Source: Thermoplasmata archaeon (GTDB lineage: Archaea; Thermoplasmatota; Thermoplasmata; Thermoplasmatales; ARK-15). Taken from it: a stretch of DNA of 64,000 nt. Below the pieces are notes generated by a model that made no database searches, was not told where the DNA came from, and saw only the letters and a program-made list of their open reading frames with translations. The position numbers and the translations under genes are program-made. Shown piece after piece: positions 22,407 through 54,286 of this stretch; positions within the stretch are counted from its first letter, which is position 1, and the number at the start of each line of letters is the position of its first letter. The stretch covers positions 32,001-96,000 of the forward strand of contig JBAMMA010000006.1 in the NCBI GenBank assembly GCA_039794005.1. The letters are read 5' to 3'.

Positions 22407-22709
22407 TGCGAAGAGCCCGAGGGCAACTGACGCTGGTATCTATGTGATACCGGTGAGGAAAGTCCCCCCTCCTGAGACACCGGTCACACCGCAAGGTGTG
22501 GTCTCGAGAGAGACGGCAATGGCACAGAAACGACACAGCCATGGTAAAGGATGATTTCATGCGAAGGACGTTTCCATGGATTTGTTGAAACGGCCAACCA
22601 CCGGGGAGCAAGCCCAAGCAAACGCGATGACAGGTCTCTCGAGCGTTGGGTGGGGCGCATAGTCGAATGTTGCCTGAAACAGAAGGGGGCTTACTACGGG
22701 CACTTCGCA
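22407..22709 (+). ncRNA. rnpB: RNase P RNA (archaeal)
   Basis: GC-rich island with GAGGAAAGTCC and its P4 partner AACAGAAGGGGGCTTA, CAGAAAC and TGAAAC; terminal P1 helix TGCGAAG-AGCCCG / CGGGC-ACTTCGCA. Confidence 0.95.
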
Positions 22710-43866: not shown

Positions 43867-44415
43867 TCACGATAGCATAATATCCATCTGATCATATCCC
43901 ACCTGCTGTAAAAGTGTTGGGTTTTCAAAGAAACCTGTACCTGTAATGTTTATTAAATATTCATAATAATATATCAAAAATATTGATTTGTGAAAATGCG
44001 GTAAATAAAATTCTTTGTATTCAAAGACTTTATACGTTCCACTGCTGTATAAAGGCATTAACGCATGCTGGAATGGAAAATATGCCTGCGCTGGAGAATC
44101 CATCTGTTGGAAAAGTATTGAAAGTGAAGAATAATTCTTTAAAGATTGGTATATTTCCTGAATATCGATTTGATATAAATTTGACTTAGAAACATTATAA
44201 ATGTGAGTATAATTTTTAATTTCATTTGTGTTATATATCTTTTCTATTGTTGATAAATTTACAAATGCTACATTTATTGGAACAACTGTAGTCTGTGGCG
44301 CATTACCCCAGAAAGTTGCATTCTTTACTGAATAATAAATTTCAAAATAAAATGCTACCACCAAAACTACCACCAAAATAATTATTATTGCCAAAATCTT
44401 CTTTAAAGACATCAT
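43867..44415 (-). CDS. Hypothetical protein with N-terminal membrane anchor
   Basis: Single N-terminal hydrophobic helix and N-glycosylation sequons. Confidence 0.6.
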   Translation of the reverse strand: MMSLKKILAIIIILVVVLVVAFYFEIYYSVKNATFWGNAPQTTVVPINVAFVNLSTIEKIYNTNEIKNYTHIYNVSKSNLYQIDIQEIYQSLKNYSSLSILFQQMDSPAQAYFPFQHALMPLYSSGTYKVFEYKEFYLPHFHKSIFLIYYYEYLINITGTGFFENPTLLQQVGYDQMDIMLS

Positions 44416-44490
44416 CGTGGGTATATATTAAATTAAATTAATAAATTTTATTTTCACAAATATTTATGAACCCATCGAGGATTAAGATAT

Positions 44491-47112
44491 ATGATGTCAG
44501 ATCCATTAGACCTTGAAATTCTTCATAATAGAGGTTTTGTGAGAAAGAAGTGCGAAAAATGTGGAGCAACATTTTGGACTTCAGACCCAGATAGAAATAC
44601 ATGTGGTGAATTTCCATGCGATCCTTACATTTTTCTGGATAAAAGGATAATGAAAGAGGAAATTAATTTTTATGAAATGATGGATAAATTTATAGAATTT
44701 TTTAAAAGTAGAAATCATGGAAAAATAGAAAGATTTCCCGTAGTTGCTAGATGGAGAAAGGATGTTTTTCTTGTAAATGCTTCTATATACGATTTTCAGC
44801 CACACATAACATCTGGAGAAGTCCCCCCACCTGCAAATCCTCTGGTTGTGGCACAGCCATGCATTAGACTTGTTGATATTGATGATGTAGGTAAAACAGG
44901 AAGACATTTAACAAGCTTTATCATGATGGCACACCATGCGTTCAACTATCCGGATAAATACGTATATTGGAAAGATGAAACGGTTTCATACGCCCTGGAT
45001 TTTCTGGAAAGTTTAGGAATAGATAAAAATTATATAACTTTGAAGGAAAATCCGTGGACAGGAGGAGGGAATGGAGGATATGCATTTGAGGTAATAGTTG
45101 GAGGTCTTGAGGTGGCCACTCTTGTTTTCATGGAATTCATTGAGGATCCAAATGGTGATATTGAACTGAATGGCCAAAAATTTAGGAAAATGGATATAAG
45201 GGTTGTTGACACTGGATATGGATTGGAAAGGTTTGTCTGGGTATCTAAGTCATCACCCTCTATTTTCGATGCCATTTATTCAGACATAATAAATAGAATT
45301 TTAGAAATTTCAAATAAAAAGTTTCCTGAATCTTACAATGAATTCATGAAAAGATTTGTTTCAATCAAAGACAAGAGTGAGGATGTATTGATTGAATGGG
45401 CAAAAAAAATAATAATGGATCTCGGTTTGGATGATTCTTACATTGATTTTCTGAACTATATAAGGAAGATCGAGCTGATTGTAGACCATACGAGATCTGC
45501 TCTCTTTATGTTAAATGATGGGGCTGTACCATCTAACGTAAAATCCGGGTATCTTGCAAGATTTGTTCTAAGGAGGTTGTTTAGGGTTTTGGAGGAAACA
45601 AATTTGATCGGCCATATGGATTACATATTTAAATTGGAAATGGAATATTTCAAGTCAATGCTTGATGAGGAGATGTTTCCAGTAATAATGGATATGGTAA
45701 AAGTTGAATATGAAAGATATAAAGAGAACATTAAAAAGTCCGAGAATATTATTGAAAAATACTTGCAAAAAGGGAATGTTGATTTAGATACACTGATACA
45801 ACTTTATGATTCATATGGTATTTTGCCTGAAATCGTTGCAGAAAAGGCAAAGGAAAAGGGGATTTTGATAAAAATACCGGAGAATTTTAGGTCTATCGTG
45901 GCATCTAAACATGAAAGGTCTCAGGAAAAAGAAAAGGAAAAGACGGTGAAATTAAATTTGAAACCAACCAGGACACTTTATTATGAAGACCCTTACATGA
46001 AAGAATTTGATGCGAATATAATATTCATAGGGGAAAATTTTGTGGTTCTGGATCAAACCGCATTTTACCCTGAAGGAGGAGGACAACCTTCAGATCTCGG
46101 TTATATGATGCAAGATGAAAAGAAATATTTTGTTAAGGATGTGCAAAAGTATGGAGATGTTATATTGCATTATTTAGAGAATGAAAATGAAATGCCAAGG
46201 ATTGGAAAAGTTCACGGAGTGATAAATTGGGATAGAAGGGCAAGGCTTATGAGAAATCATACTGCAACACACATTCTTTTACACAGCTGCAGAAAAATTT
46301 TAGGAAAACATGTGTGGCAAGCTGGTGCACAGAAAGATGTTTTATATTCCAGATTGGATATAACGCATTACAAGAGGATTTCCAATGAAGAAATAAGGCA
46401 AATTGAAAAGGAGGCCATGAAAATCATAACCGAATGCGTTCCTGTATCAGCGGAATGGATGGACAGGAATGAGGCTGAAAAACTTTATGGATTCAGGTTA
46501 TATGAAGGTGGAATTCCACCGGGCGAAAAAATCAGGGTTGTTAAAGTAGGCAATTACGATGCGGAAGGTTGTGGTGGCACACATGTTAAAAATACAGGTG
46601 AAATAGGTTTCATAAAAATTATAAAGGAAGAAAAAATACAGGACGGTGTTTCAAGGATAATATTCACTTCCTGGCTTGGAGCCATTGAAGAGGTGCATAA
46701 AATAGAAAACATTCTAAATATATCTTCGGGTATTTTAAAAGTAGAACATGACAAATTGCCTAAGACGATTGAAAGATTTTTTGAAGAATGGAAAGAATTG
46801 AAGAAATATAAAGAAAAAATGCAGGAGAGGATCATTTATTATATAATAGAGGATATAAAAAATAAAAAAATAGATATAAAAAATGGCAAAATATCTTATG
46901 GTGAGGTGGAAAAGGATATTTTATTCAACGTTGCTAAACTGCTAAAGGAAAAAAAGATTGATGCCATTTTAAAATCTGAGAATCTAATAGGCATTGTAGA
47001 TTCTGGAAACATTAAAATCCCAGAAAATATAAAATATAAGGACGTTGGATTTATAAAAATTATAGAGGGTGCAAAATTGGATGATGTTGTTTCAATGTTG
47101 GAGGTTAAATAA
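44491..47112 (+). CDS. alaS: Alanyl-tRNA synthetase (archaeal type)
   Basis: N-terminal Zn ribbon, ASIYDFQP, QPCIR, DTGYGLER and editing motifs HTATH...CGGTH. Confidence 0.96.
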   Translation: MMSDPLDLEILHNRGFVRKKCEKCGATFWTSDPDRNTCGEFPCDPYIFLDKRIMKEEINFYEMMDKFIEFFKSRNHGKIERFPVVARWRKDVFLVNASIYDFQPHITSGEVPPPANPLVVAQPCIRLVDIDDVGKTGRHLTSFIMMAHHAFNYPDKYVYWKDETVSYALDFLESLGIDKNYITLKENPWTGGGNGGYAFEVIVGGLEVATLVFMEFIEDPNGDIELNGQKFRKMDIRVVDTGYGLERFVWVSKSSPSIFDAIYSDIINRILEISNKKFPESYNEFMKRFVSIKDKSEDVLIEWAKKIIMDLGLDDSYIDFLNYIRKIELIVDHTRSALFMLNDGAVPSNVKSGYLARFVLRRLFRVLEETNLIGHMDYIFKLEMEYFKSMLDEEMFPVIMDMVKVEYERYKENIKKSENIIEKYLQKGNVDLDTLIQLYDSYGILPEIVAEKAKEKGILIKIPENFRSIVASKHERSQEKEKEKTVKLNLKPTRTLYYEDPYMKEFDANIIFIGENFVVLDQTAFYPEGGGQPSDLGYMMQDEKKYFVKDVQKYGDVILHYLENENEMPRIGKVHGVINWDRRARLMRNHTATHILLHSCRKILGKHVWQAGAQKDVLYSRLDITHYKRISNEEIRQIEKEAMKIITECVPVSAEWMDRNEAEKLYGFRLYEGGIPPGEKIRVVKVGNYDAEGCGGTHVKNTGEIGFIKIIKEEKIQDGVSRIIFTSWLGAIEEVHKIENILNISSGILKVEHDKLPKTIERFFEEWKELKKYKEKMQERIIYYIIEDIKNKKIDIKNGKISYGEVEKDILFNVAKLLKEKKIDAILKSENLIGIVDSGNIKIPENIKYKDVGFIKIIEGAKLDDVVSMLEVK

Positions 47113-48779
47113 TGTTCAACGTACATGAAATAGATTCTATTGTTAGAAAATACTTTTCCGTTTATGAGGCAAAATTAACGCCTGAATATTTGGAATATAA
47201 GGTATTGATATATCCATCACATAAAGAAACAATGAAACAATTCAGAATGTTGTGGAAGGAATTGAAAAGTTTTGAATATTTACCAACTTTGTCGGATGAA
47301 AAAGGTGAATACATTATAAGGGTAATACCATTTCCACAACAAAAGGGATTTTCAATATGGGTAAACATAATTCTATTGATTGCAACACTCATATCAACAA
47401 TTTTGGTGGGTGCTTCAAACTATGGAGGATATTTCAACGAATATTGGCTCAGCGCGAATTCGATCATAGGTGGAACATTATTTTTTGCTATTCCATTAAT
47501 GGCAATACTTGGATTACATGAACTCGGCCATTACTTTGCTTCAAAGAGGAATGGTGTAAGGGCATCCCTACCGTTTTTTATTCCTGCACCGACTATGGTA
47601 GGAACGCTTGGAGCATTCATATCAATAAGGGAACCAATACCCGATAGAAAAGCTCTTTTAGAAATAGGAGCTTCAGGTCCGATTGTTGGATTTATTGTGG
47701 CAATACCCATAGCAATATTCGGCAATTATCTGGGGAATATAATGCATCCAGTTATACAGGATTCAGCGACGAGAATGGTAATATATCCACCTCTAATATA
47801 CAACATAATAAATCTATTTGTTCCGGAGACTTCTTATATGTTTCCCATGGCGTTTGCCGCGTGGGTGGGATTTGTTGTTACAGCGATTAACCTTCTGCCC
47901 ATAGGACAGCTTGATGGTGGGCATATAGCGAGGGCCCTGCTTGGAAATAAATCAAAATATCTAAGCTATGCGTTCTTTGTATTCCTGCTAATAATTGGGT
48001 TATTCTATATAGGTTGGCTAATTTTTGCGCTTTTTGTCCTAATATTGGGACTTAATCACCCCCCTTCACTTAATGACGTGTCTAAAATTGAAAAGAAGGG
48101 ATATACGATAGGAATAATTTCAATATTGTTGATATCAGTTACTTTTGTACCGGTGCCGATAAATGAATATGTATTATATGAAAGGATAAATGTTCAGACT
48201 CCTAGCACGCAAGTTCCATTAATAATAAATTGCATTGAAAATTACACGGGAAAAATAATAATAAAGAATACGGGTGATAAGATTGAAAATGTTAGTGTAA
48301 ATGTAATATCACCGTTAAAAGTTGATTATAAAAATTACATTGGAAATCTCTCTGTTAATTCTTCATGGATAGAATATTTCAACGTTAGCATAAATAACAA
48401 TACAAAACCCGGGTTGTACAATGTAACGTTTATTTTCAAAACAATCCTTGAAAGTTATAGCGCTTATTATAACATGTCTATAATTGTATTTAATAAAACA
48501 AACAATATAAAATTCATAAATCCAACATATTACACAAATGTATCAAAGATCAACGAATCTTTTATCTACACTGGAAATACAACTACGATGATAAAAATAT
48601 GGCCCATTAACAATGCATCGATTTTCATAAACAACATTTTGATGAATAATTCAGCACAGATAATGGTAAATCCAAACTCGATTACGAACATGACGATCTT
48701 GTTTAAAAATCCTGGAAACTACAATTTAATATTATATTATGATGAAAATGCTACATGCATGAGGATTAGCTATGTCTGA
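47112..48779 (+). CDS. Site-2 (M50) intramembrane metalloprotease with C-terminal extracellular extension
   Basis: HELGH, LPFFIP, GTLGAFI and NLLPIGQLDGGH; about 200-aa Asn-rich beta-rich C-terminus. Confidence 0.88.
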   Translation: MFNVHEIDSIVRKYFSVYEAKLTPEYLEYKVLIYPSHKETMKQFRMLWKELKSFEYLPTLSDEKGEYIIRVIPFPQQKGFSIWVNIILLIATLISTILVGASNYGGYFNEYWLSANSIIGGTLFFAIPLMAILGLHELGHYFASKRNGVRASLPFFIPAPTMVGTLGAFISIREPIPDRKALLEIGASGPIVGFIVAIPIAIFGNYLGNIMHPVIQDSATRMVIYPPLIYNIINLFVPETSYMFPMAFAAWVGFVVTAINLLPIGQLDGGHIARALLGNKSKYLSYAFFVFLLIIGLFYIGWLIFALFVLILGLNHPPSLNDVSKIEKKGYTIGIISILLISVTFVPVPINEYVLYERINVQTPSTQVPLIINCIENYTGKIIIKNTGDKIENVSVNVISPLKVDYKNYIGNLSVNSSWIEYFNVSINNNTKPGLYNVTFIFKTILESYSAYYNMSIIVFNKTNNIKFINPTYYTNVSKINESFIYTGNTTTMIKIWPINNASIFINNILMNNSAQIMVNPNSITNMTILFKNPGNYNLILYYDENATCMRISYV

Positions 48780-49881
48780 TATTTTCACCATAAATAGCAC
48801 AAGTGGTAAGGCAAGGAGTGGCATTATTAAAACGCCTCATGGATATGTCAAAACACCAGTATTTATGCCAGTTGCCACAAAGGGAACAATAAAGACAATT
48901 CCATCATGGGATTTTAAATCGCTGAGGATAGAGATGATTATATCTAACGCATTCCATTTATATTTTAGGCCTGGGCTAGAAATTATTAAAAAGTTTGGAG
49001 GCCTACACAAATTCATAAACTTTGAAGGATCGATATTCACAGACAGCGGCGGTTTCCAAATGTCAAATGAAGACTTTTACTTTGGAATTAGGGAAAATGG
49101 AATAATATTTAGAGACCCGGTTTCAGGAGAGAAGATATTGTTTACTCCTGAACTTTCCGCAAAGATCCAGAATGAGATAGGTTCTGATATTGCCATGGCC
49201 CTGGATTATGTTTTGCCATACGGTAAAAGCAAAAGAAGAATGGAAGAGGCTGTAAAATTAACTTACAATTGGGCAAAATTGTTCAGGGAAAAAAGGGATG
49301 GTATTTCATTTGGAATTGTTCAGGGGGGAACATTTAAGGATCTCAGGGAAAGAAGTGCAAATGAAATAACATCTATAGATTTTGAAGGTTATGCAATAGG
49401 CGGATTATCTATGGGAGAGCCGAAGGAACTGATGATGGATATACTGGAATACACGGTAGATTTACTGCCAAGAGAAAAACCGAGATATTTTATGGGATTG
49501 GGATCCCCACTGGACATTATAAAGGGGGTAATGTTAGGTATAGATATCTTTGATTCTGTATTTCCAACCAGAAACGCAAGGCATGGACTGGCATTGACAT
49601 GGAATGGACCCATAAATCTCAGAAAAAATTATCTAAAAGATAATTTCAATAAACTGGATGAAAGATGCGAGTGTAAAACATGCAATTTTTATAATATTTC
49701 ATATATTCATCATCTCTTCAAGGAAAATGAAATATTGGGGCTCTATTTATTAACAATCCATAACATAAATTTCATGATGGATTTAATGGAAAAGATAAGG
49801 GAAGGCATTGAAAAAAATACAATAAATGAATTATATGAAAAGTTAGAGGAGGCGTATGGTAAAAATGGTGATAAGAAATAA
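48772..49881 (+). CDS. tgt: Bacterial-type tRNA-guanine transglycosylase (queuine/preQ1 family)
   Basis: 369 aa with no PUA domain; TPVFMPV, DSGGFQ, GSDIAMALD, GIVQGG, GGLSMGE, YFMGLG, DIFDSVFPTR and Zn site CECKTC...H. Confidence 0.88.
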   Translation: MSDIFTINSTSGKARSGIIKTPHGYVKTPVFMPVATKGTIKTIPSWDFKSLRIEMIISNAFHLYFRPGLEIIKKFGGLHKFINFEGSIFTDSGGFQMSNEDFYFGIRENGIIFRDPVSGEKILFTPELSAKIQNEIGSDIAMALDYVLPYGKSKRRMEEAVKLTYNWAKLFREKRDGISFGIVQGGTFKDLRERSANEITSIDFEGYAIGGLSMGEPKELMMDILEYTVDLLPREKPRYFMGLGSPLDIIKGVMLGIDIFDSVFPTRNARHGLALTWNGPINLRKNYLKDNFNKLDERCECKTCNFYNISYIHHLFKENEILGLYLLTIHNINFMMDLMEKIREGIEKNTINELYEKLEEAYGKNGDKK

Positions 49882-51505
49882 AATCATTGAAAATAAGGAT
49901 ACATTGGTTGAAGAACTTTCTAAAATTGATGATGGAAGCGTAATAGCAATTGCCGGGTTCAACAATTCTGTTACCCCTTTGTACATTATGTATTCATTAA
50001 TAGATTCATATAAAAAATATGGGAGGCCAAAAAACATATTTATTGAGGCAGACTCCTTCCCTGGAGTTCCAGGGACAGGCTTAGACATAATAATGAAAGA
50101 AATTTATGAAAATAGGTGGAAAGATTTCATTTCGGGTATATTAATACCATATTTATATAGATCTGAATACCTACAAAGGCTTGCGATGGAAAATTATTTT
50201 GAAATATATAGCTTCAGCATAGGCATAACAACATCACTTTTCAGGGAACTGGGTTCAGGAAGACCTGGTGTTTTAACAAAGATAGGTCTTGGAACATTTC
50301 ACGATCCAAGGCTTGATAATTCAGCGGTAAATGAAAAAGCGAGAATTAAAAAGAGGTGCAAGGCGGAATTGATTAATATAAATAATGAGGAATACCTTTT
50401 GTATACAGCACCAAAACCACAGATTGCATTTGTAAGGGCCACATCCTCGGACATTGATGGAAATCTTTCTATGGAGGAGGAGGGGATTTATGGTGCGACC
50501 TTGCCTGTGGTTTTGGCGACAAAGTCAAATCCTGGAGGAAAGGTATTTGCTCAGGTAAAATATGTAGTTTCTCAGAAAAGTAGATCCCCGAAGGAAATAC
50601 ATGTACCCGGGCCTCTCGTTGATTATATCGTTCATGCGCCAAAAGAATATGCTCCTCAGGGTTCAACAGTATATTACGATCCCATGATATCTGGCCAGAG
50701 CATACCTAATGAAATAAAAATTAAATTTCCAAACAGGGAGATGGATGAGAGGTTCGTCATAAGGAGGAGGGTTGCTTACGAAATTGCAAAATTGATTGCA
50801 CGTGAAAAGAGAGACATAATAGTAAATTTTGGTACGGGCCTTCCAACAGAAATATCTTCCGTTTTGGCTGAGGAGGGCATATCTGAATGTATTCATACCA
50901 CAGTTGAATCGGGACCTTGGGGAGGTGTTGCATTAACCGGAAATGATTTTGGACTTTCATATGGCCCTTATTCAATAATACAACAGGCCGATCAATTTAT
51001 CGTTTATGAGGGAGGAATTGCAGATTTGACATCACTAGGTTTTCTGGAGGTTGATAAAAATGGAAACGTGAATCCATCGTATACTGGCGAAAGGATACCT
51101 GGTCCGGGTGGATTTTCTGACATATCGAGCGGAATTAATAGGATATATTTTGCTGGCGGTTTTACAGGAGGCGAAAGAGATATAAGAGTACATGAAAATA
51201 AATTAATAATAAAAAAGGATGGAGACATTATAAAATTCGTTGAAAGAGTGAAAAAGGTATTTTTCTCTGGGGAATATGCAATAAAAAGGAAAAAGGAAGT
51301 ATTATACATAACTGAAAGGGCAGTATTTACCCTGACGGAAAGTGGGTTAAAATTGATAGAGATAGCCCCCGGGGTTGATATAGATAAGGACATTTTGGAA
51401 AAGATGGAATTCAAGCCAATTATTGATGAATATGATTTTATACCAGAGATTATATTTTCAAATAAAAAAATGAATTTAAAGGAAATATCAAATTGTTTGA
51501 TATAG
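49856..51505 (+). CDS. Fused family I acyl-CoA transferase (propionate/acetate CoA-transferase, YdiF-like)
   Basis: TKIGLGTFHDPR, NFGTGLP, catalytic TVESG, GPGGF.DI and YITERAVF..LIEIAPG. Confidence 0.9.
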   Translation: MVKMVIRNKIIENKDTLVEELSKIDDGSVIAIAGFNNSVTPLYIMYSLIDSYKKYGRPKNIFIEADSFPGVPGTGLDIIMKEIYENRWKDFISGILIPYLYRSEYLQRLAMENYFEIYSFSIGITTSLFRELGSGRPGVLTKIGLGTFHDPRLDNSAVNEKARIKKRCKAELININNEEYLLYTAPKPQIAFVRATSSDIDGNLSMEEEGIYGATLPVVLATKSNPGGKVFAQVKYVVSQKSRSPKEIHVPGPLVDYIVHAPKEYAPQGSTVYYDPMISGQSIPNEIKIKFPNREMDERFVIRRRVAYEIAKLIAREKRDIIVNFGTGLPTEISSVLAEEGISECIHTTVESGPWGGVALTGNDFGLSYGPYSIIQQADQFIVYEGGIADLTSLGFLEVDKNGNVNPSYTGERIPGPGGFSDISSGINRIYFAGGFTGGERDIRVHENKLIIKKDGDIIKFVERVKKVFFSGEYAIKRKKEVLYITERAVFTLTESGLKLIEIAPGVDIDKDILEKMEFKPIIDEYDFIPEIIFSNKKMNLKEISNCLI

Positions 51506-52965
51506 GGGTGAAAGGATTGGATAATATTAATGAATTGATTGAAAAATACAAGTCAATTGAGGCAATAAATCATGCAAAGAGGTTGATGTTTTGGGACATG
51601 GAGACGGTAATGCCGCCGTCTGGGATAGAGGAGAGGTCTGAAGTTTTATCAAATATTGAAAACTATCAAAAGAAGATGTATCTGGAATTGAAGGATCTGG
51701 TAGATAAAATTGAAGAGAATGATGATTATTCAGAGGCAATAAAAAGGATATTAAAAAAGCAAATACACTATTATTCATCATTGCCCGATGAAATCAACAG
51801 GGAGATCACAAAAATATCTGCCATTGCAGAGAGTGTTTGGAAAATTGCCAAGAATAGAAATAATTTCAAAATTGTCGAACCATATTTAGAAAAAATTGTA
51901 GACTTGGAGATTAAAATAACCGAATACCTTGGATATAAAAAGCATCCGTATGATGCATTGCTTGATAATTATGAAGAAGATTTTACAGTTGATGATGGAG
52001 ATAAAGTATTCGATTATTTAATAAGAGAGACAAAAGGAATGATAGATAAGGTGATGGATAAAGAATTTTCAAAAACACAAAAAATAAAAAATGAAAAATA
52101 TAAAAAGGAATGGATGGTTTCAATATCGAATGATCTAAAAAATATATTCAAAATACCTGAAGACAAATTTAGGATTGATGAATCCGTTCATCCATTCACA
52201 ATAAATATTTCACCAGACGATGTTAGAATTACAACAAAATTTGAGCTTATTGACTTCAAAAAATCGCTTTTTGCAACAATACACGAAATGGGACATGCTA
52301 TATATCTTTTAAACATTAACAAGGAATATGGATGCACTCCATTATATTCATCGCCATCGTTTGGGTTTGATGAATCACAATCAAGGTTTCTTGAAAATTT
52401 CATAGGTAAAAGCAAAGAATTCACCGAATTTTTTTATCCAATTTTGAAAAGACATCTGCCATTCATTAAAAAATATGATACTGATGAAATATACTATTAT
52501 TTCAACAATATAGATAGAACGCCAATTAGAATTGATGCTGATGAATTGACTTATAATATTCATATTGCAATAAGGTATGATATTGAAAAGAATTTGATTG
52601 AAGGTAAATATAAAGTTAGTGAAATACCTGAAATATGGGATTCCAAAATGGAGGAATACCTGGGGATTAGGCCTAGGAATCACAAGGAGGGAATTCTTCA
52701 AGACATACACTGGTATCAGGGGAGTTTTGGTTACTTTCCAACATATACACTTGGAAACATAATAGCTGCAATAATATGGTATAAAATAGAAAATATCAGA
52801 GAACATTTAATGAATGGTGATTTTGACCAAATCTTTGAATTTCTTAAAAATAATATACACATATATGGTGCCCTATACTCGCCAAAGGATTTGCTAAGAA
52901 GATCATTTAACGAAGATTATAATCCAGAATATTTAATAAAATATTTTAAAGAAAAATTTATTTAA
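51493..52965 (+). CDS. Carboxypeptidase M32 (Taq/Pfu type)
   Basis: HPF, HEMGH, DESQS, IRIDADE, LQDIHW and GYFPTYTLG. Confidence 0.93.
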   Translation: MFDIGVKGLDNINELIEKYKSIEAINHAKRLMFWDMETVMPPSGIEERSEVLSNIENYQKKMYLELKDLVDKIEENDDYSEAIKRILKKQIHYYSSLPDEINREITKISAIAESVWKIAKNRNNFKIVEPYLEKIVDLEIKITEYLGYKKHPYDALLDNYEEDFTVDDGDKVFDYLIRETKGMIDKVMDKEFSKTQKIKNEKYKKEWMVSISNDLKNIFKIPEDKFRIDESVHPFTINISPDDVRITTKFELIDFKKSLFATIHEMGHAIYLLNINKEYGCTPLYSSPSFGFDESQSRFLENFIGKSKEFTEFFYPILKRHLPFIKKYDTDEIYYYFNNIDRTPIRIDADELTYNIHIAIRYDIEKNLIEGKYKVSEIPEIWDSKMEEYLGIRPRNHKEGILQDIHWYQGSFGYFPTYTLGNIIAAIIWYKIENIREHLMNGDFDQIFEFLKNNIHIYGALYSPKDLLRRSFNEDYNPEYLIKYFKEKFI

Positions 52966-53100
52966 AAAGGTAAATATTTCTATTAAATTATATTGATAAC
53001 ATACTTTAAAATAAAAATTTTATTATTTTTATTTTCAATTTCAAATATAAATTAATTAAGTTTTCGAAAAATTTAAATAGTATATAAATATTTAATCTAT

Positions 53101-53388
53101 ATGTCTGAACTTGCCATCAAGGTGGGCAAGGTAATAGCTATTAGAGGAAACATGTTGATTGCAAAATCTTTCAAGGTTCCTAATGTTGGAGATGAGGTAT
53201 ACGATTCTAATGGAAAACTTGTGGGACGTATAATTAACATTTTTGGTCCAGTAAATTCACCGTATTTCAGAGTAAGGATAGAAAAGGGGAAGGAGGTAAA
53301 AGGTTATTTGTTTACAAAAGGTGATAAAGATGGCGGAGGAAGAAAGGAAGGAAAAAAGGGACATAAGGAATTGGATAGAAGAGATTGA
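53101..53388 (+). CDS. gar1: H/ACA RNP protein Gar1/Naf1
   Basis: [15 protein letters not shown]; conserved position upstream of tfb. Confidence 0.85.
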
Positions 53389-54286
53389 TAAATGTCCTAA
53401 ATGCGGTTCAACACACCTCGCCAGAGATTATGAGAGAGGCGAATTGACCTGTCTAGACTGCGGTTTTGTCATTGATGAGGGATATATAGACCAGGGACCA
53501 GATTGGAGAGCTTTTGATGCAGAACAAAAAGAGGAAAGGGTTAGAACCGGAGCACCCATGACATATACAATACACGATAAGGGATTATCAACTGAAATTT
53601 CTTGGAAAAACAAGGATTCATATGGGAAAAATATTCCAACAAGAAACAGGTCTCAATTATATAGATTGAGGAAATGGCAAAGAAGGATAAAGGTTTCAAA
53701 TGCTGCGGAGAGAAATCTTTCGCAGGCCCTCCAGGAACTTGAGAGAATGGCAAGCAATTTAAACCTTTCTAAGGAGGTAAGGGAAGCTGCCGCTGTAATA
53801 TACAGGAAAGCCGTGAGGGAAAACATGATAAGGGGCAGGAGCATTGAAGGCGTTGTTGCAGCGAGCATATATGCCGCATGCAGGCAGTTAGGTATACCGA
53901 GGACACTTGAGGAAATTGCATCAATAACGAGAATAAAGAAGAAAGACATAGGGAGGATATTCAGGATAATGTCCAGGACTTTGAAGCTAGGTCTATTCCC
54001 ATCAAAACCAGAGGAATATGTTGACAGGTTCTGCGCAAAACTTAATTTATCTCCAAAGGTAAAAAACAGGACAATGGAGATAATAAAAATGGCGGAAGAA
54101 AAGGGATTATCTTCTGGAAGAGGTCCAACAGGGCTTGTTGCGGCCGCCCTTTATATTGCATCCGTAATGGAAAATGAAAGAAGAACACAGAGGGAAATAG
54201 CAGAAGTAGCTGGAGTTACAGAAGTAACAATAAGAAACAGATACAAAGAGATGGCTGAAAAATTGGGTTTAAAAATAGATATTTAA
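53330..54286 (+). CDS. tfb: Transcription initiation factor B
   Basis: Zn ribbon [18 protein letters not shown] and two cyclin repeats (GRSIEG; [18 protein letters not shown]). Confidence 0.97.

Follow-up and report, generated by a model that had tools for sequence, protein, structure and literature searches.

A bacterial-type tRNA-guanine(34) transglycosylase with a genus-private Val158/Met233 pocket in a Thermoplasmata archaeon, and its probable place in a queuosine route without a recognised QueF

The locus described here lies in a 64,000-nucleotide stretch of the genome of a Thermoplasmata archaeon (assembly GCA_039794005.1, contig JBAMMA010000006.1, positions 32,001 to 96,000), the whole of which we call the window. 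It carries tgt, an open reading frame (ORF) for a tRNA-guanine transglycosylase (TGT), set in a cluster of co-directional genes (Table 1). The product has a single TGT domain in Pfam (PF01702, residues 13-362 of 369, 446 bits), and the scan of the 369-residue protein found neither a C2 nor a PUA domain; ORF and domain content both agree with the first-pass annotation of this DNA, which had described a TGT of that length without the C-terminal domains of the archaeosine enzyme (arcTGT). The NCBIfam equivalog for the position-34 enzyme Tgt, TIGR00430, covers residues 5-364 with 428.2 bits, well over its cut-off of 306.75. The arcTGT model TIGR00432 gives 155.6 bits, under its cut-off of 350, so that by model score the product falls outside arcTGT, the family in which a placement had been named beforehand as evidence against a position-34 enzyme. 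All NCBIfam matches are to tRNA Tgt, arcTGT and ArcS models; none at E <= 0.01 is to a DpdA model, although whether the library includes one was not established. Among solved structures the top match is 2ASH (E 1.4e-112), which we take to be the Tgt of Thermotoga maritima; variants of the Zymomonas mobilis Tgt come next (about 1e-92), then QTRT1 structures (1e-78) and the arcTGT 1IQ8 (1.6e-21). The match to 2ASH is full-length and, together with the TIGR00430 score, upholds the earlier view that the protein is colinear with bacterial Tgt. Its closest named relative, at 81% identity, comes from a metagenome-assembled genome labelled "Thermoplasmata archaeon", and the next named ones are bacterial (43-46% identity). 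Judged by sequence, tgt is a genuine bacterial-type tRNA-guanine(34) transglycosylase gene.

The residues of the active site were numbered from the Z. mobilis Tgt chain; the printed alignment is gap-free around every mapped residue, and the Z. mobilis numbering therefore carries over directly. The catalytic, base-binding, peptide-switch and zinc residues are all conserved in the tgt product (Table 1). For Asp102, Asp156, Gln203, Glu235, Asp280 and the zinc ligands this had already been judged by eye, and the alignment agrees on every one of them; it likewise confirms the two specificity positions as Val158 and Met233. The residue that marks the preQ1-type pocket, Cys158, is absent and replaced by Val147 of the product, while the residue at 233, Met214, is bulky and not Gly, yet lies outside the usual Val, Ile or Leu. 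The comparison with the Thermotoga-type enzyme 2ASH makes this plain: the two proteins share the catalytic Asp residues, the Leu-Ser switch with Glu235 and the CxCxxC...H zinc site, and 2ASH also has a bulky residue at 233 (Ile, in GGLSIGE), but it retains Cys158 where the window protein has Val158.

Table 1. The tgt gene, its mapped residues (Z. mobilis numbering in the first column) and other features of the window
Feature	Position in window or in tgt product	Strand	Basis or remark
tgt, bacterial-type tRNA-guanine(34) transglycosylase, 369 aa	48772..49881	+	ORF, ATG start; Pfam, TIGR00430, PDB 2ASH
Asp102 (TDSGGFQ)	D91
Asp156	D145
Position 158 (ALDYV)	Val147, codon GTT, 49210..49212	+	Z. mobilis alignment
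Gln203	Q184
229-235	G210-G211-L212-S213-M214-G215-E216
Gly230	G211
Leu231/residue-232 peptide switch	L212-S213
Position 233 (GGLSMGE)	Met214, codon ATG, 49411..49413	+	Z. mobilis alignment
Glu235	E216
Met260	M242
Asp280	D261
Zinc ligands 318/320/323/349 (CxCxxC...H)	C299/C301/C304/H330
alaS (alanyl-tRNA synthetase), opens the co-directional cluster	44491..47112	+	Pfam tRNA-synt_2c, 355 bits
M50-family membrane metallopeptidase gene, end overlaps tgt start by 8 nt	47112..48779	+	Peptidase_M50, 80.7 bits
CoA-transferase family gene, listed ORF start overlaps tgt stop by 26 nt	49856..51505	+	CoA_trans, 88.9 bits
M32 carboxypeptidase gene, closes the cluster	51493..52965	+	Pfam Peptidase_M32, 457.9 bits
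Archaeal RNase P RNA	22411-22705	+	230.7 bits against a gathering score of 84

The host genome possesses most of the genes that such an enzyme would need as partners. QueA is present (359 bits, cut-off 267), as is QueH (191 bits), whose gene lies on the same contig as tgt, about 21 kb past it and outside the window (L059:7081-7638, minus strand, contig C6). The preQ0 genes comprise GCHY-1, QueD, a QueE-like radical-SAM gene and QueC; FolE was not found in this genome. Because QueA, QueH and the preQ0 genes occur together, tgt can be assigned to the bacterial Tgt-QueA-QueH queuosine route. The "little-described route" proposed in the first-pass annotation gives way here to the ordinary bacterial pathway via preQ1. 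Its claim of a bacterial-type Tgt within an archaeon stands, and the same genome has an arcTGT of its own (634 aa, 540 bits, with C2 and PUA domains, on contig C19) along with an ArcS-like protein (303 bits, under its equivalog cut-off). A search of the rest of the genome, which that annotation had suggested, thus finds arcTGT, the ArcS-like protein, QueC, QueD, the QueE-like protein, QueA and QueH; what it does not find is QueF or the precursor transporters QPTR/YhhQ and QueT.

The substrates are there as well. All four genes for tRNAs with GUN anticodons (Asp, Asn, His and Tyr) are present, each with U33-G34-U35 in a CUGUN anticodon loop, and UGU is the recognition element of Tgt substrate tRNAs. 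The tRNA-Tyr gene is intron-bearing: tRNA-Tyr(GUA), at G000:C19:76027-76119 on the plus strand, is recovered only by a search that permits introns (here one that begins at position 38); a search that does not permit them mislabels the stretch as tRNA-His.

We consider it rather likely, on these gene contents, that the window encodes a working Tgt of bacterial origin which places preQ1 at G34 and feeds a QueA/QueH queuosine route operating beside the archaeosine route. From the gene complement we infer the following scheme. Tgt, very probably directed at G34, would remove this base from tRNA-Asp, -Asn, -His and -Tyr and insert preQ1; QueA would convert the preQ1-tRNA into epoxyqueuosine-tRNA, and QueH would then reduce it to queuosine. 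The separate arcTGT/ArcS pair would make archaeosine at G15 from self-made preQ0, and the preQ1 for Tgt would come either from neighbouring bacteria by uptake or from an enzyme not yet recognised. With respect to the pocket, Met233 would keep it shut to queuine, and with Val158 the enzyme would probably bind preQ1 less tightly but still use it.

Textbooks place queuosine in bacteria and eukaryotes, and reserve archaeosine for archaea. The distribution of the genes discussed here is broad. Relatives were coded by family, the window's own family being f1 with four genera (g1-g4), and the window's genus consists of two genomes. In the order (41 genomes, the host included) Tgt and QueA each exceed their cut-offs in 33, QueH is found in 26 and QueF in 17. 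Family f1 has Tgt, QueA and QueH in each of its 16 genomes and QueF in none; f5 has all four genes in 7/7; f3 has Tgt, QueA and QueF in 8/8 and QueH in 0/8; and in f7 Tgt, QueH and QueF are found in 0/7 each, with a weak, sub-cut-off QueA-like match in a single genome of the seven. An even sample of 301 genomes from the class yielded Tgt over cut-off in 71, QueA in 69 and QueF-II in 50. Families f1, f9, f20, f22, f24 and f32 of this sample combine Tgt and QueA with no QueF-II match, and f5, f16, f18, f19 and f21 have all three. The two QueF searches differ in reach: at the order level PF14489 was used at E <= 0.01, which covers both single- and two-domain QueF, and at the class level TIGR03139 at E <= 1e-10, which may miss the two-domain form. 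Throughout the order and the class Tgt co-occurs with QueA. Bacterial-type Tgt is common in Thermoplasmata, and the route cannot be called exceptional for an archaeon. Some QueA-like ORFs score far lower (115-155 bits against the cut-off of 267): one is G027:C5:3564-4562 and others occur in families f7, f17 and f29. Families f7 and f17 yielded no bacterial-type Tgt, and these sub-cut-off ORFs may represent a QueA paralogue with another role.

A quick FastTree phylogeny of 158 rows, from which the partial bacterial sequences L015 and L017 were left out, unites the Tgts of the order with named proteins of Methanoperedens, Methanosarcinales and Methanocellales in a clade of 112 rows (SH-like, that is Shimodaira-Hasegawa-like, support 99). 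Most rows of the tree are unnamed, hence a purely archaeal make-up cannot be claimed for the clade. It adjoins a 19-row clade (support 95) that includes named Thermotoga and Thermosipho proteins. The history we envisage is that an archaeal ancestor would have acquired tgt from bacteria, with vertical inheritance since then in this Thermoplasmata lineage.

How unusual is the pocket? Positions 158 and 233 were compared in 67 archaeal Tgts, 33 from the order and 34 more from the class; the order alignment excludes G016, a member of family f2 with a weak Tgt match (203 bits). Within the order 31/33 proteins have Cys158/Ile233, and Val158/Met233 occurs only in the window's genome and its genus mate. 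None of the 34 further proteins departs from Cys158, and each has either Ile233 (28) or Leu233 (6); 18 of the 34 come from families without a QueF-II match, the other 16 from QueF-bearing families. Apart from the window's genus, Cys158 is therefore invariant in the archaeal set (65/65), and position 233 is occupied by Ile (59 proteins) or Leu (6). The 120 closest database proteins extend the picture: the pairs at 158/233 are C/I in 75, C/V in 38, C/L in 3, V/M in 2, M/I in 1 and V/L in 1, so that Cys158 is found in 116 of the 120, and the two V/M proteins are again that of the window and that of its genus mate. The pocket is indeed atypical, as first suspected (2/67 archaeal Tgts and 2 of the 120 closest proteins), and Val158/Met233 is a real, rare substitution pair, fixed in and private to one genus. 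We have rejected the notion that the change is tied to the loss of QueF: Cys158 is kept in genera g2-g4, which have no QueF, and in five further families without a QueF-II match. A second lineage-specific pocket variant was seen in f20, also a family without a QueF-II match, whose Tgts (L105-L110) carry TDCGGFQ, with Cys at the Ser103 position, in 6/6 cases, and Leu at 233 within GGLGLGE in five and GGLSLGE in one.

Several observations weigh against a functioning queuosine route of this kind, most of them concerning the supply of preQ1. QueF (PF14489) has no match in the host genome and is absent from the 15/15 other f1 genomes (76-98% complete; total 0/16), and a tblastn search of the host genome with the QueF proteins of four relatives gave a best E of 0.05. 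The known precursor transporters fare no better, QPTR/YhhQ being found in 0/16 f1 genomes and QueT in 0/41 genomes of the order. Val158, by analogy with the model enzymes, would hamper the scavenging of scarce preQ1. The host genome is 87% complete, and within the literature searched there is no measured queuosine in archaeal tRNA.

The QueF proteins of the sister families are not in doubt. In the tested representatives of f2-f5 they reach 105-152 bits on TIGR03139 (cut-off 86.9), which makes them true QueF-II, the preQ1 synthase, and they have the conserved Cys and an ELKSLK-type motif. Family f1 itself has no QueF, and preQ1 must therefore either be imported from neighbouring bacteria or be made by an unrecognised enzyme. 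Many transporter families are able to carry preQ0 and preQ1, according to one study (PMC11130926), and uptake from neighbouring bacteria via an unrecognised transporter is for this reason the most economical explanation. Members of the major facilitator superfamily (MFS) can act as such carriers in bacteria (PMC11130926), and a gene for an MFS transporter (L060:1148-2359, minus strand, contig C12) is found in the host at a distance of two ORFs from that for the ArcS-like protein.

A less probable course, and one that we would put forward only tentatively, is that f1, and apparently several other Thermoplasmata families, derive preQ1 through a reductase unrelated to QueF, the starting material being either preQ0 of their own making or a 7-deazaguanine intermediate that precedes it, in which case the Val158/Met233 pocket may mark a shifted acceptance of bases. 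The gene neighbourhoods of the pathway genes offered no convincing QueF substitute or transporter candidate. An ORF adjoining the QueE-like gene (L062:2108-2728, plus strand, contig C18) was discarded as a substitute, its tblastn match of E 0.053 being treated as noise; it contains an LRGCIG motif, which we assume to be typical of AMMECR1. An aldo/keto reductase gene was also rejected, as it stands beside queA in only 3/19 loci (those of the window's genus and one other genome). Finally, a gene for an enoyl-CoA hydratase/isomerase (L059:7635-8369, minus strand, contig C6) lies directly 5' of queH, with an overlap of 4 nt, and adjoins it in 12/12 f1 loci as against 0/4 loci of f4 and f5. No functional link is apparent, and we do not propose it as a QueF substitute because we see no tie between its chemistry and the reduction of a nitrile.

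Model enzymes give some guidance on what the two substitutions might do to base recognition. For a natural Val158 the sole experimental stand-ins are the Z. mobilis Cys158Val variants (for example PDB 4E2V) and the equivalent Cys145Val change in E. coli Tgt, which, like the window protein, have Val in an otherwise preQ1-type pocket. They differ from it in being laboratory-made, with Val or Gly at 233, whereas the window protein is natural and has Met233 and a Tyr157 context. In Z. mobilis the change raised Km(preQ1) from 0.9 to 16 uM (about 18-fold) and lowered kcat about threefold, selectively weakening the binding of preQ1 and not that of guanine (PMC3660597); in E. coli Km(preQ1) rose from 0.05 to 2.76 uM, or 55-fold (PMC3074131). 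Both mutants remained active, and Val at 158 is the eukaryotic residue (PMC3660597, PMC3074131). By this analogy Val158 may lower the affinity for preQ1, unless Met233 and the local context compensate.

These measurements could be turned into an argument that the Tgt of the genus inserts its own preQ0 at G34, the Val158/Met233 pair having been adapted to the nitrile-bearing base once QueF was lost. Besides the selective weakening of preQ1 binding in the Z. mobilis mutant, the absence of QueF from a genome with preQ0 genes and the fixation of the pair in both genomes of the genus would fit such an adaptation. We nevertheless regard it as improbable. Without the aminomethyl group of preQ1, QueA and QueH cannot work, and both are intact in the two genomes. 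The three other genera of f1 also do without QueF and still have Cys158/Ile233, and 18/18 Tgts from five other families without a QueF-II match combine Cys158 with Ile233 or Leu233. Moreover, arcTGT uses preQ0 and targets G15, and the host's own arcTGT reads LDIFS and GGVVP at the 158 and 233 sites; the Tgt pocket therefore shows no convergence on a preQ0 pocket.

The eukaryote-like Val158 likewise raises the idea that Tgt inserts queuine directly, as do eukaryotic QTRT1 and the Tgt of Chlamydia trachomatis. These queuine enzymes share the equivalent of Val158, and the QTRT1 structures match the window protein at about 1e-78; they have Gly233, however, in genomes without QueA and QueG/H, in contrast to Met233 and the presence of QueA and QueH here. 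Queuine-using TGTs have the signature GG[LS][AS]G, with Gly at 233, according to one study (PMC11570991), and in the Z. mobilis enzyme queuine is driven by a bulky residue 233 into a position where it collides with the tRNA (PMC3660597). The bulky Met233 suggests, in turn, that the pocket is not of the queuine type, and a queuine-inserting Tgt would render superfluous the QueA and QueH that are conserved. That this Tgt takes queuine is very unlikely, and we conclude from the pocket residues that it is probably still of the small-base (preQ1) type. Whether Val158/Met233 alter the preference for a base is not a matter that sequence alone can decide.

The setting of the gene bears on a further explanation, namely that tgt is left over from a horizontal transfer and is decaying or no longer functional, or that the contig is bacterial and mis-binned. 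The cluster alaS-M50-tgt-CoA-transferase-M32 is co-directional and tight, with overlapping stops and starts. The first-pass annotation had placed tgt downstream of alaS, which holds in so far as the two share a cluster, but the M50 gene intervenes between them. The M50-tgt arrangement recurs in 12/12 loci of g1, g3 and g4, three of the four genera of f1; it was found in 0/3 loci of g2 and in none of the loci examined from other families. The longer order alaS-M50-tgt is seen also in genome G001 and in the five g4 loci long enough to show it, and the CoA-transferase gene adjoins tgt in g1 and g4. A comparison of tgt in the genus's two genomes gives a nonsynonymous divergence (pN) of 0.118 against a synonymous one (pS) of 0.75, the latter being saturated; pN lies far under pS, and tgt is therefore under purifying selection. 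Together with the recurring arrangement, this bears out the earlier impression that the gene is domesticated.

The genome is a 1.10-Mb draft in 20 contigs, 87.2% complete with 0.29% contamination, and a draft of this kind, along with the bacterial affinity of the closest non-archaeal named relatives (43-46% identity), might lead one to suspect mis-binning. However, the contig that carries tgt is 119.8 kb long and has genes for TFB and Gar1 just downstream of the tgt cluster, as well as L7Ae and an archaeal RNase P RNA; since it has TFB, Gar1 and this RNA, and the genome has arcTGT, the host is an archaeon. The GC content of tgt agrees with that of the rest of the window, and the M50-tgt arrangement is shared by three genera. 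A remnant is contradicted by the open frame, the intact catalytic residues and the excess of pS over pN. This explanation is largely refuted, and we attach very little probability to it. Scans of positions 44000-53400 counted 62 sites resembling sigma-70 promoters (shuffled sequence: 48.7 +/- 6.5) and 7 resembling terminators (shuffled: 4.7 +/- 2.5); both models are bacterial and uninformative for an archaeon.

Least credible of all is that Tgt acts elsewhere than at G34, on tRNA G15 like arcTGT or on DNA like DpdA: the TGT fold is common to all these enzymes and a sequence is in itself no proof of the target position, but the arcTGT model falls well short (156 bits against 350), the C2 and PUA domains are missing from a protein whose genome has a full arcTGT elsewhere, no DpdA model was matched at E <= 0.01, the neighbours (alaS, M50, CoA-transferase and M32 genes) do not form a dpd-type cluster, and tgt co-occurs with QueA across the order and class. 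The host's arcTGT and Tgt do share the fold, being 29% identical over 299 residues; they are the products of separate genes, and Tgt has neither the C2 and PUA domains of arcTGT nor its LDIFS/GGVVP pocket.

Queuosine genes in archaea are not without precedent, which runs counter to the earlier statement that the route is little described. The available text of Castelle et al. (2021) reports complete or partial sets of the bacterial queuosine genes (QueA, QueH-like, Tgt) in 34 archaeal genomes, 12 of them DPANN and with Methanosarcinales also included, and Table S5 of that work lists queuosine-gene neighbourhoods in two Aciduliprofundum genomes (PMC8204110). Tgt, QueA and QueH are the genes present here too, and the two Aciduliprofundum genomes appear to belong to the order of the window's genome, which very probably is that of Aciduliprofundum; their Table S5 rows stop some 3-5 kb before the QueH matches in genomes G019 (family f5) and G023. 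In the part of the article available, the pocket residues, QueF and the supply of preQ1 are not discussed. Aciduliprofundum has QueF, and the window's family is a separate one, without QueF. Beyond that article we found no further report of bacterial-type Tgt in archaea within the literature searched. In addition, NCBI already labels close homologues [quoted passage not shown]. With archaeal queuosine genes both in print and in public annotation, tgt alone therefore adds little; it is a further case of a Thermoplasmata genome with both systems, in a class of which about a quarter of the sampled genomes have bacterial-type Tgt.

Two things are new. One is the natural Cys158Val/Ile233Met pocket limited to a single genus. 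This private variant would offer a natural setting in which to learn how the residue at 158 adjusts the recognition of preQ1. The other is the gap in the pathway, with whole families that have the preQ0 genes, Tgt, QueA and QueH but lack QueF, f1 being also without both transporter families. This QueF gap is the most useful lead to come out of the locus, and it points either to a dependence of these archaea on the preQ1 of their community or to a missing enzyme.

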